Below are positions 2,297 through 9,389 of a DNA stretch of 31,805 nucleotides, in pieces. Each line of letters starts with the position of its first letter. Position 1 is the first letter of the stretch. The DNA lies in the NCBI GenBank assembly GCA_964489485.1, contig CAZAZB010000001.1, positions 1 through 31,805 of the forward strand, in the 5' to 3' direction. Both the position numbers and the translations under genes were made by a program. The stretch comes from an uncultured Pseudomonadales bacterium. GTDB lineage: Bacteria; Pseudomonadota; Gammaproteobacteria; Pseudomonadales; Azotimanducaceae. The notes beneath the pieces are model-generated. The model saw nothing but the letters and a program-made list of their open reading frames with translations, made no database searches and was not told the origin of the DNA.

Positions 2297-3325
2297 GTGC
2301 CCACCTACTCAACTTCACGGCTCAACTTTCAGGTTCAAGATTCGAGCTTCATCAGAATCGTTGAGTCCGACGAACTTTTAGCTTTTTGCAAAGCGACCGC
2401 TGACGCGTTGCGCCTGGATATTATCAGGGTATTGAGAGGCGAGTCGTTCAGCGTGATGGAGCTTTGCCGCATATTTGGCACAACTCAACCGAGCATGAGC
2501 CACCATTTAAAGATACTCGCCGGTGCGGGTCTTTTACAAACACGAAGAGAAGGGAATACCATTTTCTACCGCCGCGCACTCATCGCATCAGACGGTCCCA
2601 TCAGCGACCTGATGGCAAGGTTGTTTGAATCCATTGACCGCATGGCGCTGCCCTTAGCGGTTACAGATAGCTGCAAGCAGGTGCACAACGCCCGGGCGCA
2701 GCACTCAAAAGAATTCTTTGAAAAGAATGCTGACAAGCTCAAGGACAATCAGAATCTTATTGCAGAATTTTCACACTATTCATCCTGCATAATTGAGTTT
2801 CTTTCAAATGAGCAGTTCGCCGATAATTGCCAGGTCATCGAGGTTGGACCCGGTGAAAGCGACCTCATTGAAATTCTTGCCGAACACTTCAAGACCGTCA
2901 CAGCTGTTGATAATTCGCCGGAAATGCTCGAGCGGACCAGAGAGAAAGTTGCGTCCGCAGGGCATACTAATGTTGACTATTTCCTGGGAGAATTATCGAA
3001 CCTCCCCGGTTCTCTTCACTCAGATCTAATCGTGTTGAATATGGTATTGCACCACTTGCCTTCACCTGCAGAAATATTTCCTGCTGTGATAGAGCACCTT
3101 GCTCCAAACGGCGTATTGCTGATCGCCGACCTGTGTTCTCACGATCAAGATTGGACAAGACAAACCTGTGGCGATGTCTGGTTAGGCTTTGAGCCCGATG
3201 ATATCGATATGTGGGCGGTCTCCGCAGGATTGGAGAAAAAGCAGAGTGTCTATCTTGGATTGCGCAACGGGTTCCAGATACAGGTAGGTCTATTTCGAAA
3301 ACCGAACCCACTGAAAGTCGCTTGA
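2297..3325 (+). CDS. sahR: ArsR-family HTH + class I SAM-binding methyltransferase domain regulator (SahR)
   Basis: N-terminal ArsR HTH (KATADALRLDIIRVL...SVMELCRIFGTTQPSMSHHLKILAGAGLL...REGNTIFY). C-terminal MT fold (VIEVGPGES, VTAVDNSPEML, LNMVLHHL). Lies directly upstream of ahcY with matching operators. Confidence 0.85.
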   Translation: MPTYSTSRLNFQVQDSSFIRIVESDELLAFCKATADALRLDIIRVLRGESFSVMELCRIFGTTQPSMSHHLKILAGAGLLQTRREGNTIFYRRALIASDGPISDLMARLFESIDRMALPLAVTDSCKQVHNARAQHSKEFFEKNADKLKDNQNLIAEFSHYSSCIIEFLSNEQFADNCQVIEVGPGESDLIEILAEHFKTVTAVDNSPEMLERTREKVASAGHTNVDYFLGELSNLPGSLHSDLIVLNMVLHHLPSPAEIFPAVIEHLAPNGVLLIADLCSHDQDWTRQTCGDVWLGFEPDDIDMWAVSAGLEKKQSVYLGLRNGFQIQVGLFRKPNPLKVA

Positions 3326-3495: not shown

Positions 3496-4863
3496 ATGAG
3501 TAATAACGACTATAAGGTCGCGGACATCAGTCTGGCGAAGTTCGGACGAAGCGAGATTGAGTTGGCGGAAGCCGAGATGCCTGCACTAATGGCACTGCGT
3601 AAAAAATACAAGGCAGACCAGCCGCTGGCAACCGCAAAAATCATGGGGTGTATTCACATGACCATTCAAACGGCTGTTCTGATCGAGACACTGGTGGAAC
3701 TTGGCGCCGAAGTCAGATGGTCCTCCTGTAACATCTTCTCAACGCAGGATCACGCGGCTGCGGCAATGGCTGAGAGCGGTATCCCGGTCTACGCCTGGAA
3801 GGGTGAAACTGATGAGGAGTTTCTATGGTGCATCGAACAAACAATTCTCAGCGATGGCAAGCCCTGGGATGCCAACATCATCCTCGATGATGGCGGTGAC
3901 CTGACTGAGATGGTTCATAGTAAATACCCTGAAATGCTCAATACTATCCACGGCATCACCGAGGAGACAACAACAGGTGTTCATCGCTTGTTCGAAATGA
4001 TGGCAGCCGGGGAACTTAAAGTACCCGCGATCAATGTGAACGATGCCGTCACAAAATCCAAAAACGATAACAAATACGGCTGTCGTCATAGCCTGAATGA
4101 TGCCATCAAACGTGGCACAGATATGTTGATGGCTGGCAAGCGTGCGCTGGTCATTGGCTATGGTGATGTGGGCAAAGGTTCAGCGCAAAGTCTTCGACAG
4201 GAAGGCATGATCGTCAGAATCGTCGAGATTGATCCTATCTGCGCCATGCAGGCATGTATGGACGGCTTCGAAGTTGTCTCTCCGTACAATAACGGGGTGA
4301 ATACCGGCAAACTCGACGATATTGATACCAGGCTGATGAGTGCCACGGACCTGATTGTCACTTGTACGGGCAACGTCAATGTTTGTGATGAAAACCTCCT
4401 TCGCACCATCGCCTCAAATGCAATCGTCTGCAATATCGGTCACTTCGATACTGAAATTGACACCGCATTCATGCGCGAGAACTGGAGATGGGAAGAAGTA
4501 AAACCCCAGGTGCACAAGATCTATCGCAGTGATGATCCGAAAGACTATGTCATTCTTCTCTCGGAAGGCCGCCTGGTAAACCTTGGCAATGCAACAGGTC
4601 ATCCGTCTCGTATTATGGACGGCTCCTTTGCCAATCAGGTACTGGCACAGATGTATCTGTTCGAGCAGAAGTGGGCAGATCACGATCCAAGCCAACGGGC
4701 ACCGATTACAGTAGAGGTACTTCCCAAGGCACTTGATGAGGAGGTCGCCGGATACATGGTTGAGGGTTTCGGGGGTGTCATTACCCAGCTAACTTCCACT
4801 CAGGCGGACTACATCAATGTACCCACAGAAGGTCCTTTTAAATCGGAAACCTACAAATATTAG
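3496..4863 (+). CDS. ahcY: S-adenosyl-L-homocysteine hydrolase
   Basis: Signature motifs [89 protein letters not shown] at 3482-3486. Confidence 0.98.
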
Positions 4864-4943: not shown

Positions 4944-5810
4944 GTGATGAAACAAGAACTCAAAGATCTGCTCAACCTGCTTGATCTGGAGCAAATTGAA
5001 GTCAATATGTTTCGCGGTGTTAGCCCGGACGAGGGCTGGCAAAGAGTTTATGGCGGGCAGGTTCTCGGGCAGGCACTCGTCGCAGCATCGCGCACTGTAG
5101 AGGATGAAACAAGGACGGCACATTCGCTGCACGGATACTTTCTGCGTCCCGGCGATACCACCATTCCCATTCTCTACAACGTAGACCGCATCCGGGACGG
5201 TCGGAGCTTCACCACGCGACGTGTGATGGCCATTCAAAAAGGCCGCCCCATCTTCAGCATGTCCGTCTCTTTTCAGGTGGCAGAAACCGGACTTGAGCAT
5301 CAATCCAATATGCCTGAAGTACCAGGGCCGGACGACTGTCCGAGCGAAAGGGAACTGCATGAGAAGTTTGCGAAAGATATTCCGGAAAAGTTTCAGGGCA
5401 GGGTCGAGCGACCCCGCCCGATTGAAATGCGATTTGTCGAACCCTGGAATGAATACAATCCTGAACCCATGGCGCCAGAACAACATGTCTGGATGAAGGC
5501 AGTTGATACCATGCCGGAGGACATTCGGCTTCATCAATGCCTACTCGCTTATGCATCGGACATGACGCTGATCGATACCAGCTACAGGCCGCATGCCATT
5601 GGCTGGGGAAACGATAAGTTTCAGGTGGCGAGCCTCGATCATGCCATGTGGTTCCACAAACCTATTAAGATGGATGAATGGTTATTGTACTATCAGGACA
5701 GCCCCTTCTCTGGAAGCGCCAGAGGTTTTAGTCGCGGCACAATATTCAACGCCACAGGAGATCTGGTAGCATCCGTGGCACAGGAAGGACTCATCAGGTT
5801 GCACCCATGA
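4944..5810 (+). CDS. tesB: Acyl-CoA thioesterase II
   Basis: RVYGGQVLGQAL, HSLHGYFLRPGD, RIRDGRSFTTRRV, LLAYASDMTL, ASLDHAMWFH, VASVAQEGLIR. Start is GTG 4944 or ATG 4947. Confidence 0.95.
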   Translation: MMKQELKDLLNLLDLEQIEVNMFRGVSPDEGWQRVYGGQVLGQALVAASRTVEDETRTAHSLHGYFLRPGDTTIPILYNVDRIRDGRSFTTRRVMAIQKGRPIFSMSVSFQVAETGLEHQSNMPEVPGPDDCPSERELHEKFAKDIPEKFQGRVERPRPIEMRFVEPWNEYNPEPMAPEQHVWMKAVDTMPEDIRLHQCLLAYASDMTLIDTSYRPHAIGWGNDKFQVASLDHAMWFHKPIKMDEWLLYYQDSPFSGSARGFSRGTIFNATGDLVASVAQEGLIRLHP

Positions 5811-6667
5811 ATTCGATTAATTACATGCAGCGCACCCGTGACCTCTATCGGGCACAGGGTTTTAAGAAAGACTATGTCTGGGCACACTTCACAGATACCC
5901 CATTTATACAGATCAAGAAGCCTCTGGCTGAATGTAAGGTCGCAGTGGTCACAACCGCAGTTGTAGATCCTGCGGTGCCGAAGCCTGTGCGAAAAGCGGC
6001 GAGTTACCTTTATTGTGACCTTCCAGATCAGCTAGATACAAACGACCTTGCATGGGACAAGGTGACAACCCACACCAACGACCGGCAGAGCTACTTCCCT
6101 TTTGAAGTCCTCAATAAATTGGTCCGCGAAGGCAAGATTAAATCTCTTGCCCCAAGATTTCACTTTGTGCCAACCGAGTATAGTCAACGCAACACCCTGA
6201 CATCTGACGCACCGACAATTCTTAGCGCCTGTCAGGAAGATGGCGTCGACATTGCCTTACTTGTTCCCTTGTGACCCGTCTGCCATCAGACCGTGAGTCT
6301 GACTGCAAGAACACTGGAAGACGGGGGGATCGCAACCGTTGTGATTGGCTCCGCTCTCGATATTGCCGAACATTGTGGTACCCCGCGTTTTTTGTTCAAC
6401 GACCTGCCATTGGGAAACCCCCTGGGGAAGCCCGGGGACAGGGAGATGCAGGAAAAATCTATTCTGCTGGCACTGGACATGATTGTCTCTGCAAGGGCCC
6501 CAGGGGCCGTTGTTCACTCAGATTTCCGCTTTTCCGACGATGACAGCTGGAAAGAAAACTACGCCCGGATCGACGAGTCCAATCGGGCTGAACTTTTAAG
6601 GTTGGGCGACCTGAACAGAAAACGCCGCGCCGACAATCAAGCCAAAGGGCTTAGCCGTAAACAGTAG
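5807..6667 (+). CDS. PrdB/GrdB-family (reductase selenoprotein B-like) protein, 286 aa, with in-frame TGA at 6272-6274 read as selenocysteine
   Basis: ORFs 5807..6274 and 6293..6667 are in the same frame. Reading through gives DIALLVPL-U-PVCHQTVSLTARTLEDGGIATVVIGS...GTPRFLF...PLGNPLG, which aligns by eye to the PrdB U-x-x-C-H region. ATGA overlap with the tesB stop. Confidence 0.85.
6275..6325 (+). promoter_or_regulatory. Putative bacterial SECIS element
   Basis: Apical stem TCAGAC (6286-6291) / GTCTGA (6297-6302) with loop CGTGA. The loop starts 17 nt after the TGA and has G at its second position. Possible basal stem CCCGTCT (6275-6281) / AGACGGG (6319-6325). Confidence 0.7.
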
Positions 6668-6720
6668 TCACAAGCTCTGGCCTTAATTTTGGGCAAGACC
6701 AGGCCAGACATTACCTTCCC

Positions 6721-6985: not shown

Positions 6986-7936
6986 GTGACCATCAAGAAC
7001 GAAGATCGACTCAGCAGCGTTGAAGTCATTCAGCAGAACTTTGGACAGCTGAACTATATATGTAACCTTCAGATTGCCACTGCTGTTTTTCTCGCCTACC
7101 ACCTGGAGAAACCCATTTTGATCGAGGGCCCTCCTGGTGTCGGTAAAACAGAACTCGCCAAAACTGCCGCAGAGATGCTGGATCTCCCGTGTATCAGGCT
7201 CCAGTGTTACGAAGGTCTTGATGAATCAAAGGCGATATATGAGTGGAAATATGGCAAACAATTGCTTTACACCCAGGTTCTAAAAGAAACGCTTGGCGAG
7301 ATTCTGGAAGGCGCAACCGGACTGGCAGAATCTGTTGAAAAGCTGCACAGTTTTGGTGACATATTCTTCTCTGAAGAATTTTTGGAGCCCAGAGCGCTGT
7401 TGAAGGCACTAAAAGCAGAAGAAAGCTGTGTTCTGTTGATCGACGAGGTGGATAAATCAGATCATGAATTCGAGTCCCTGTTACTTGAAATGCTCTCGGA
7501 CTATCAGCTGTCAATTCCCGAAATAGGGACGATCAAGGCGCATCCGGATAGAAAACCACTGGTCTTCCTGACCAGCAATAACACTCGCGAGATAAGCGAC
7601 GCCCTCAAACGCCGGTGCCTGCATCTGTACATTCCATTTCCTGACGCTGATCTGGAAAGCCGGATTGTGCATGCCAGGGTGCCAGAAATTCCGGACAGGT
7701 TGAGAAATCAGCTCGTCGCTTTCATTCAGGAGCTACGAGAAATGGACCTCAAAAAAGTACCCGCCATCAGCGAGACAATAGACTGGGCTCGAACGCTGAT
7801 CCTGCTACACAGTGAATCCCTCGATGCAGACCTTGTTCGACAAACACTGAACGTTATTTTGAAATTTCAGGAAGACATCGAAACCGTTGAAGCAGAAATT
7901 CAGAATGTAACGAACAAGGCGATCAAAGAAAGCTAA
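6986..7936 (+). CDS. MoxR-family AAA+ ATPase (CoxD-like)
   Basis: Walker A EGPPGVGKT, RLQCYEGLD, Walker B LLIDEVDK, LTSNNTRE, DALKRRCL. Confidence 0.9.
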   Translation: MTIKNEDRLSSVEVIQQNFGQLNYICNLQIATAVFLAYHLEKPILIEGPPGVGKTELAKTAAEMLDLPCIRLQCYEGLDESKAIYEWKYGKQLLYTQVLKETLGEILEGATGLAESVEKLHSFGDIFFSEEFLEPRALLKALKAEESCVLLIDEVDKSDHEFESLLLEMLSDYQLSIPEIGTIKAHPDRKPLVFLTSNNTREISDALKRRCLHLYIPFPDADLESRIVHARVPEIPDRLRNQLVAFIQELREMDLKKVPAISETIDWARTLILLHSESLDADLVRQTLNVILKFQEDIETVEAEIQNVTNKAIKES

Positions 7937-7940
7937 TCTC

Positions 7941-9389
7941 ATGGACAGAACACTGGTCGATTTCGTTAAGGTCCTGCGCACTGCAGAGATCAAGGTGTCG
8001 CCTGCAGAGACGCTTGATGCAATGCAGGCAATCGACCTTGTGGGATATGAAGATCGCCAGTTTCTCAAAAACTCACTCTCTATGGTTCTCGCCAAGAATC
8101 CAGAAGAAAAAGAAGCCTTCGATTCCTGTTTTGATCACTTTTTTACTTTCCAGAAAATATCGAGCAGCCAGCCCGATTCGGGTGAATCGTCAAGTCAAAG
8201 TGATGATGGGGAATTCGATGAGGGCGAAAGTGCCGATGGCAATCGACCTGGCGGTGGTAAGGGCAGTGGACAGGGATCAGGACAGGGCGGCGGCGAGGCG
8301 TCAGAAGAAGATCATTCGCTAGCGCCGGAGTCAAAACTTGGCAAACTGCTACTGTCTGGCAATAGAACCGAGCTTACGGTCGCCCTGGCAGAAGCTGGAC
8401 GTGAGGTTGAAGTGAACCAAATCGTGGTCTTCACCCAGAAAGGTCTGTATACCAGAAAGATCATGGATGCCATGGGCCTTAAGGAGCTGCAGGAAGAAAT
8501 TTCTGAACTGCAAGCCCAGGGTGGACGCCCACAAAACACCCTTTCAGCAAAACTCAAACGCGCACGCGATCAGTTAAGGGAACAGGTTCGCGACTACGTT
8601 GAAAAGCAATTTTTCTTGCATGCAGACGAATCGGGTAAACAGCTACGCGAAGAATTGTTAAAAAAAGTAAAGCTGTCCAACCTGGAAAAACGTAATTTCA
8701 AGGATGTTCAGGAAGTCGTATTCAAGATGGCTAAAAAGTTGATCGCCATTCATTCCAAGCGTCGTAAAACCTATAAGCGTGGTCAGTTGGACGTTCGCAA
8801 AACGCTCAGACACAATATGCAATATGATGGCATGTTCTTTGACTTGAAATGGAAGGCTTCGAAAGTTGACCGACCTAAAGTCATGTGTATTTGTGATGTT
8901 AGCGGGTCAGTAAGTAATTACTCACGATTCTTGTTGATGTTTCTCTACAGCCTGGCGGAGATTCTGCCAAAAGTTCGCTCTTTCGCATTCTCATCGGATC
9001 TGGGGGAAGTGACTCGCCTGTTCGAAAGCAGTAGTCTTGAGGATGCGATGGCGAAAACAATGCGTGATTATGGCAACGGGTCCACTGACTATGGGCGCAT
9101 GCTGATGGACTTCAAACACCAGTGCATGAACGATGTTAATAACAAGACCACCATCATTATTCTTGGCGACGCCCGAAACAATTACGGCGACCCTAAATCA
9201 GAGATTCTGCGAGAAATGTATGACAAAGCCAAACGGGTCATCTGGCTCAATCCAGAACCAAAAATGAGCTGGACCGTGGGAGATGCGGAAATGAAAAAGT
9301 ATGCACCTTGCTGCCACCAGACCGAGGTCTGTAACTCACTCATGCATCTTGAACGGGTTGTCTCAAACCTACTGCGTTTTGCAGCATAA
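7941..9389 (+). CDS. VWA-domain protein (CoxE-like)
   Basis: N-terminal FVKVLRTAEIKVSPAETLDA, acidic/Gly linker, LDVRKTLR, MIDAS CDVSGSV, GSTDYG, ILGDARNNY, IWLNPEP. Starts 4 nt after the MoxR stop. Confidence 0.88.
   Translation: MDRTLVDFVKVLRTAEIKVSPAETLDAMQAIDLVGYEDRQFLKNSLSMVLAKNPEEKEAFDSCFDHFFTFQKISSSQPDSGESSSQSDDGEFDEGESADGNRPGGGKGSGQGSGQGGGEASEEDHSLAPESKLGKLLLSGNRTELTVALAEAGREVEVNQIVVFTQKGLYTRKIMDAMGLKELQEEISELQAQGGRPQNTLSAKLKRARDQLREQVRDYVEKQFFLHADESGKQLREELLKKVKLSNLEKRNFKDVQEVVFKMAKKLIAIHSKRRKTYKRGQLDVRKTLRHNMQYDGMFFDLKWKASKVDRPKVMCICDVSGSVSNYSRFLLMFLYSLAEILPKVRSFAFSSDLGEVTRLFESSSLEDAMAKTMRDYGNGSTDYGRMLMDFKHQCMNDVNNKTTIIILGDARNNYGDPKSEILREMYDKAKRVIWLNPEPKMSWTVGDAEMKKYAPCCHQTEVCNSLMHLERVVSNLLRFAA

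Follow-up and report, generated by a model that had tools for sequence, protein, structure and literature searches.

The locus and its reading frame

This analysis concerns a gene at positions 5807-6667 of a 31,805-nucleotide stretch of DNA (the window) from an uncultured bacterium of the order Pseudomonadales (contig CAZAZB010000001.1, assembly GCA_964489485.1), read on the forward strand. The frame that starts with the ATG at 5807 runs into an in-frame TGA (6272-6274; surrounding sequence CCC TTG TGA CCC GTC TGC CAT, P-L-stop-P-V-C-H), beyond which 130 further codons follow before a TAG at 6665-6667. The whole measures 287 codons, that is 286 residues and a stop, with a predicted product of about 32 kDa. 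A preliminary description of this DNA had read the TGA as a recoded UGA joining two open reading frames (ORFs) into one gene for a selenocysteine (Sec) protein. The in-frame TGA and the open frame beyond it were confirmed, and the recoding itself is supported by a column that holds Cys or TGA in homologues, by a hairpin specific to the TGA forms and by Sec machinery in the genome. The best explanation overall, which we hold at a probability of roughly 93%, is that the locus carries one Sec-decoded, stand-alone selenoprotein gene for 286 residues of the GrdB/PrdB superfamily, with its Sec insertion sequence (SECIS) inside the coding sequence. Judged from the sequence, the narrower claim that 5807-6667 is a real selenoprotein gene, and one gene rather than two, is at least as probable and possibly somewhat more so. 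The gene structure, the Sec/Cys column, the conservation of the SECIS-like hairpin, the Sec machinery and the mis-annotation of the gene are established directly. The features of the locus are as follows:

5807..6667, + strand: complete predicted selenoprotein gene, stand-alone, PrdB/GrdB superfamily (translation with TGA as U156; TIGR04483 match across the TGA; homologue coverage)
6272..6274, + strand: UGA, predicted Sec codon for U156, first residue of U-P-V-C (aligns with an invariant Cys; TGA column conserved)
6281..6283, + strand: codon for Cys159, presumed resolving cysteine of the U-x-x-C motif (invariant in the alignment of 29 homologues; position in the AlphaFold model)
6282..6306, + strand: bacterial SECIS-like hairpin within the coding sequence (fold, covariation, contrast of Sec and Cys forms)
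5807..6271, + strand: N-terminal fragment of the public annotation, 155 residues (exact sequence exists as a separate protein)
6293..6664, + strand: C-terminal fragment of the public annotation, 124 residues, internal GTG start (exact sequence exists as a separate protein)

Conservation of the UGA column

A search of the protein database found 874 homologues. Those ranking highest are about 291 residues long, share about 50% identity and cover 93-99% of the query, whose N-terminus lines up with the N-termini of the homologues. When 29 full-length homologues are aligned, the TGA column is an invariant Cys within an invariant L-C-P-V-C-H-Q-T. The Cys159 column is likewise invariant, and dozens more invariant residues flank the TGA column on both sides. 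The preliminary description had anticipated that homologues would carry either Cys or TGA at this column, and both are found.

Six-frame searches covered the genome itself with 60 relatives and, separately, one genome per prokaryotic species, from which the best 80 loci were taken. Homologues are present in 34 of 36 other genomes of the same family and in 0 of 24 from other families of the order. The relatives yielded about 95 matches, almost all with exactly one in-frame TGA, and in the best orthologues (20 of 20, at 45-66% identity) the TGA stands at exactly the same column (L-stop-P-V-C-H-Q). Among the best 80 loci across prokaryotic species, that column is TGA in 74 and TGT or TGC in 6. 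Hosts of the TGA form in this set include Pseudomonadales (several of them labelled Candidatus Azotimanducaceae), Myxococcota, Spirochaetes, Reyranella, Vineibacter, Hyphomicrobiaceae and Anaerolineaceae, and the Cys form occurs in Bradyrhizobium and a few other Alphaproteobacteria. The recurrence of TGA at one column, in about 95 genes of 35 related genomes and across phyla, means that these are not independent nonsense mutations.

A few homologues carry two or three in-frame TGAs, or a TGA together with a TAG (L029, at G035:C86:2022-2789; G008:C14:64246-65001; G063:C57 and C51). Such genes might be decaying copies or encode an additional Sec; the SECIS stem of L029 also has a mismatch.

A SECIS-like hairpin within the coding sequence

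In bacteria, a SECIS element follows the UGA closely on its 3' side and has a small apical loop that contains a G (PMC1088965). At this locus the hairpin lies 10-34 nt after the TGA. Its stem pairs 6286-6291 with 6297-6302 around the apical loop CGUGA (6292-6296), which has G at loop position 2, and a lower extension (6282-6283 with 6305-6306) sits beneath a 2x2 internal loop. The spacing from TGA to loop is 17 nt, and the hairpin is thus present as the preliminary description had it. It overlaps codons conserved at the protein level (C-H-Q-T-V-S-L), and for this reason RNA conservation was evaluated from synonymous sites and by comparison with the Cys forms. Covariation was assessed in 86 distinct TGA-bearing homologues. 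The contrast set comprised 87 TGA forms and 27 Cys forms, the latter made up of 6 orthologous sequences and 21 from a paralogous subfamily.

The nine-pair helix is 94% paired in the 86 TGA forms; shifting its 3' arm by one to three columns lowers this to 20-32%. Columns 18 and 28 are G-C in 73 sequences, A-U in 12, G-U in 1 and unpaired in none; the 12 A-U cases combine CAG>CAA (Gln) with CUG>UUG (Leu), both synonymous. At columns 15 and 31, 8 sequences have U-A in place of C-G, and at columns 19 and 27 one has U-A in place of A-U, there through two amino-acid changes. All six core pairs are intact in 74 of 87 TGA forms (the remainder have five) and in only 1 of 27 Cys forms, and the mean minimum free energy of the core segment is -8.5 kcal/mol in the former against -4.1 kcal/mol in the latter. 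Codon choice follows the same division: the Ser codon is AGU in 74 of 87 TGA forms (with U at that position in 86 of 87) and in 2 of 27 Cys forms, 15 of which use AGC, while the loop codon is GUG in 81 of 87 TGA forms and 6 of 27 Cys forms. The hairpin shows the expected bacterial SECIS signature, is kept in the TGA forms and has decayed in the Cys forms.

Selenocysteine machinery and the genetic code

The Sec machinery to which the preliminary description had tied its proposal is present in the genome. A selA gene (581 bits) is followed directly by selB, which is split between two contigs: its N-terminus lies at the end of C251, and the remainder opens C443. There is also a selD gene (294 bits) and a tRNA-Sec with anticodon TCA (67 bits), confirmed by ARAGORN. 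Moreover, selA is present in both cultured carriers of the TGA form, Reyranella soli and Vineibacter terrae, and was not found in the one Cys-form genome tested, a Bradyrhizobium metagenome-assembled genome (MAG). The selD gene encodes a 736-residue fusion with a Cys-type active site (G000:C456:44-2254, L011), in which a pyridine-nucleotide-disulfide-oxidoreductase domain (TIGR03169; its 485 bits exceed the cut-off) forms the N-terminal part, ahead of SelD (291 bits).

An alternative genetic code, with TGA read as Trp or Gly, was considered and rejected. TGA is the normal stop of 4 of the 23 large ORFs in the window, including the tesB gene immediately upstream, so there is no genome-wide reassignment; homologues, moreover, carry Cys at the column in question.

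Another rival reading is a pseudogene, in which a nonsense mutation would have killed a Cys-type gene and left the two ORFs as remnants. Gene callers do handle the locus in this way, and the hairpin of the single sequence is not strongly significant. Against this stand the recurrence of the same-column TGA in relatives and across phyla described above, the 130 downstream codons, which are open, conserved and rich in invariant residues, the synonymous sites around the hairpin, which are constrained only where the TGA is present, and the Sec machinery itself. The pseudogene reading is effectively refuted, and we leave it almost no probability.

Systematic mis-annotation

Under the standard code, the ORF list gives two pieces, 5807..6274 (155 residues) and 6293..6667 (124 residues, from an internal GTG start). 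Both fragments exist as separate public proteins (NCBI, Logan), just as the preliminary description had expected of standard gene callers, and the orthologous 155-residue fragment from the same genus is deposited as a “hypothetical protein” (MFP6809238.1). The error reaches well beyond this genome. When 1.84 billion proteins were searched exhaustively, the best 150 cluster representatives included 33 that stop at query residue 153-155 and 13 that start at 158-166; the splitting is systematic and general. No NCBIfam model reaches its cut-off on the protein, and annotation pipelines will therefore go on splitting these genes. For the genome studied here the annotation can be corrected: two “hypothetical proteins” are one selenoenzyme.

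Relationship to PrdB and GrdB

Against TIGR04483, the NCBIfam model for PrdB, residues 26-237 of the product align with positions 12-229 of the 238 in the model (E 1.3e-25). Because this match spans the TGA, the homology crosses the stop, which bears out the earlier remark that homology-like sequence continued past it, and U156-P-V-C159 falls inside the matched region. The score of 90.3 bits nevertheless lies below the 300-bit equivalog cut-off. PF07355 (15.3 against 22 bits) and TIGR01918 (23.5 against 65.45 bits) also fall below theirs, and their matches cover only the C-terminal half of models of about 430 residues, the half with the Sec motif. The protein belongs to the GrdB/PrdB superfamily but lies outside every curated family. 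The label “PrdB/GrdB-like” in the preliminary description consequently holds at the superfamily level and goes no further: every curated cut-off is missed, and PrdA, GrdE, GrdA and PrdC were not found. Specifically, the PrdA model TIGR04480 and the GrdE/PrdA family PF09338 have no match in the genome itself, PF09338 has none in the 60 relatives (35 of which carry the gene), GrdA (PF04723) has no match in the genome itself, and the best PrdC score there is 52 bits against a 490-bit cut-off.

These results bear directly on whether the gene is a genuine PrdB, which would reduce D-proline to 5-aminovalerate together with a PrdA pyruvoyl subunit encoded elsewhere. TIGR04483 is the best NCBIfam match and nearly full in model length, some sources label homologues “D-proline reductase (dithiol) PrdB,” and ocean surveys filed such sequences as “Proline reductase PrdB” (PMC1088965, PMC2398784). 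However, the score is less than a third of the cut-off, the searches described above found no PrdA, PF09338 or PrdC, no prd-type gene occurs among the upstream neighbours of 91 loci, and the hosts (Pseudomonadales, Alphaproteobacteria, Myxococcota) are not Stickland fermenters. A genuine PrdB is therefore very improbable. Within the limits set by a missing positive control, discussed below, it is highly likely that the protein is not a classical D-proline reductase; since no pyruvoyl-subunit gene was found, it does not appear to serve as B subunit in a D-proline or glycine reductase of the clostridial type. We favor instead the stand-alone selenoprotein described at the outset.

The PrdB proteins of Clostridium/Acetoanaerobium sticklandii and Clostridioides difficile (Kabisch et al., 1999, as cited in PMC13188914) share homology over nearly the full model and a Sec in U-x-x-C at the equivalent place. 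The gene studied here encodes about 25 extra N-terminal and about 50 extra C-terminal (helical) residues, and comes with no PrdA proprotein, PrdC or prd operon that could be found, in hosts with a different way of life from that of Stickland fermenters. GrdB, GrdF and GrdH (PF07355, TIGR01918) belong to the same superfamily and match over their C-terminal half including the Sec motif, but the present protein has 286 rather than about 430 residues, scores below all their cut-offs, and has no GrdA or GrdE that was found. The Cys homologues of Bradyrhizobium and other Alphaproteobacteria, annotated as “glycine reductase” or “PrdB,” show 47-51% identity over 93-99% of the length and share the invariant L-x-P-V-C-H-Q-T along with many further invariant positions. 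They differ in having Cys (TGT/TGC) for Sec and in lacking the hairpin and its codon bias, and the carrier tested lacks selA.

The genome holds three more PrdB/GrdB-like genes, each with one in-frame TGA: G000:C30:4384-5157 (L143:4372-5256), G000:C148:2726-3445 (L144) and G000:C488:92-547 (L145). Their motifs are, in that order, U-P-V-C (in a protein 48% identical to the 5807-6667 product), U-P-L-D (which lacks a resolving Cys) and U-P-L-C. In relatives, the number of such genes reaches 6 per genome.

A family known from the oceans

Selenoproteins of this kind are a class already described from marine sequences, as the preliminary description pointed out. “Proline reductase PrdB,” with a UxxC motif, ranked third in abundance among the selenoprotein families of the Sargasso Sea, with 42 Sec forms and 1 Cys form (Zhang, Fomenko and Gladyshev, 2005; PMC1088965). 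It was again among the top families of the Global Ocean Sampling (GOS) survey, with 235 Sec and 110 Cys forms (Zhang and Gladyshev, 2008; PMC2398784). By description, the family of these surveys resembles the one studied here in its UxxC motif with Sec first, its relation to PrdB and pfam07355, its excess of Sec over Cys forms, its aerobic environmental hosts and its SECIS with a small G-containing apical loop. The ratio of 74 Sec to 6 Cys among the best genome loci likewise matches the Sec predominance of the marine family. The gene is a further member of a family known from ocean surveys since 2005, and existing knowledge is not overturned.

Those surveys listed the family by metagenomic read and named it proline reductase, without host genomes, partner analysis or SECIS covariation. 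A 2026 review gives only the clostridial D-proline reductase function (PMC13188914), and no study of the stand-alone PrdB-like form was found in the literature searched. What is added here is the assignment to hosts, the SECIS covariation, the contrast between Sec and Cys forms, the empty partner searches, the scale of the mis-annotation and a lead from gene fusions. Since the carriers searched have no detectable PrdA, the name “proline reductase” is probably wrong for the ocean family. Several handles are now available for finding the reaction, among them the SECIS consensus, the cultured TGA-form carriers with selA (Reyranella soli NBRC 108950 and Vineibacter terrae CC-CFT640), the Cys-form Bradyrhizobium homologues and a tentative link to acyl-CoA metabolism.

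Structure and proposed mechanism

An AlphaFold (AF2) model of the protein has an alpha/beta fold, with a predicted local distance difference test score (pLDDT) of 79 and a predicted template-modelling score (pTM) of 0.81. It places U156 in the loop between a strand (149-153) and a helix (157-172), with C159 in the first helical turn; in the model, this placement corresponds to the usual geometry of a redox-active CxxC/UxxC center. A profile search against PDB sequences, and Foldseek against the PDB and the AlphaFold database/Swiss-Prot, gave nothing usable, the best template-modelling (TM) scores being about 0.3 for generic alpha/beta folds. GrdE and GrdI appear among the Foldseek rows with probabilities of 0.98-0.99 but TM scores of 0.33-0.35, and were not used to assign function.

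The protein is most likely a stand-alone U-x-x-C selenol/thiol reductase. The UGA at 6272-6274 would be decoded as Sec by the SelA, SelB, SelD and tRNA-Sec of the genome, under the direction of the SECIS hairpin lying within the codons for C-H-Q-T-V-S-L-T-A. By analogy with PrdB and GrdB, the selenol(ate) of U156 would then attack a small-molecule substrate in a pocket formed by many invariant polar residues. Resolution of the adduct by Cys159 would give a selenenyl-sulfide, to be re-reduced by thioredoxin or another cellular dithiol. The catalytic cycle, the reductant and any substrate are inferred.

Several points weigh against the interpretation as a whole. Selenium incorporation at U156 is a prediction from sequence, and the catalytic cycle is extrapolated from the biochemistry of clostridial PrdB and GrdB (reviewed in PMC13188914). 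The single-sequence fold of the hairpin is marginal (z = -1.9, with 8 of 200 shuffles folding equally well), and its significance accordingly rests on the comparison with other genomes. No part of the window reached the gathering score of an Rfam family, and hence there is no curated SECIS match; the SECIS assignment of the preliminary description is borne out through the hairpin's specific conservation in TGA forms and not through a matching model. The genome is a 4.45-Mb MAG in 699 contigs, 97% complete, from a microbial-mat metagenome. The models for PrdA, GrdE and GrdA matched none of 14 control genomes, which leaves the PrdA and GrdE searches without a positive control and makes “not found” weaker than it looks. 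A genuine PrdB with a PrdA neighbor was sought as a control, but 0 of 10 distant representatives, on short contigs, reached the PrdB cut-off. Finally, no RNA run contains the locus; two DNA runs do, both from one microbial-mat study.

Genomic neighborhood and the acyl-CoA lead

The gene immediately upstream is:

4944..5810, + strand: tesB, acyl-CoA thioesterase II (TIGR00189, 309 bits, above cut-off)

Its TGA stop overlaps the ATG of the selenoprotein gene (ATGA), an arrangement that suggests translational coupling between the two. Although tesB is the commonest upstream neighbor, it occurs in only 5 of 91 loci, all of them close relatives. No conserved operon partner emerged when the ORFs of 100 loci were clustered and 91 upstream neighbors scanned against Pfam (downstream neighbors being listed only). 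In other loci, genes for acyl-CoA synthetase, short-chain dehydrogenase/reductase (SDR), enoyl-CoA hydratase, acyl-CoA dehydrogenase and CoA-transferase recur near the gene. AMP-binding genes occur at 1 per 66 kb of these loci against 1 per 222 kb in the genome itself, an enrichment of about 3-fold that is held to be weak because the loci are related. In addition, two proteins of 805 and 813 residues each join a whole AMP-binding acyl-CoA synthetase and a PrdB-like domain of the Cys type in one chain. Despite a mutual identity of only 34%, the two align collinearly from end to end, which indicates that the architecture is conserved. The fusions could be a Rosetta-stone link to the function of the family. 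The two fusion proteins are P0130 (L146:363-2780) and P0278 (L148:1141-3582), with the motif P-N-C-P-V-C-H-Q.

Taken together, the overlap with tesB, the two divergent fusions, the recurring acyl-CoA-type neighbors and the density of AMP-binding genes raise the idea that the enzyme acts on acyl-CoA or acyl-adenylate intermediates, in a selenol-dependent step of carboxylate activation or thioester metabolism. These hints are weak, and we consider such a substrate unlikely. Any one neighbor is conserved in at most about 5-15% of loci, the majority of them related rather than independent. Each fusion is a singleton, from a paralogous Cys subfamily (PNCPVCHQ, 40% identity) outside the orthologue group, and the host bacteria are rich in acyl-CoA genes in any case. 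A broader proposal, which we rate slightly lower still, would unite the stand-alone PrdB-like selenoproteins (the 5807-6667 gene, the three TGA paralogues and the copies in relatives) as a distinct family of aerobic heterotrophs, selenol-dependent but not proline reductases, with no pyruvoyl partner and perhaps acting on acyl-adenylates or acyl-CoA. If true, it would mean a new Sec-dependent reaction concealed by systematic mis-annotation.

Other features of the window were also noted. Just past the selenoprotein gene, 6668-6700 contains an inverted repeat (CTGGCCT...AGGCCAG) that begins 11 nt past the stop codon and has no T-run; it may be a transcript-end structure. Farther downstream lie a MadB-like AAA ATPase (6986-7936; 298 bits, below the cut-off of 475) and a MadC-like VWA/CoxE protein (7941-9389; 168 bits, below the cut-off of 600), a pair separated from the selenoprotein gene by 318 nt. 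On the other side, an ArsR/SmtB helix-turn-helix domain fused to an S-adenosylmethionine-dependent methyltransferase domain (2297-3325) is followed by adenosylhomocysteinase (ahcY, 3496-4863, 520 bits), which lies just upstream of tesB. At the start of the window, and truncated by it, is a sensor histidine kinase (22-1386), closest to TIGR03785, the kinase of the “proteobacterial dedicated sortase system,” with 339 bits against a cut-off of 612.

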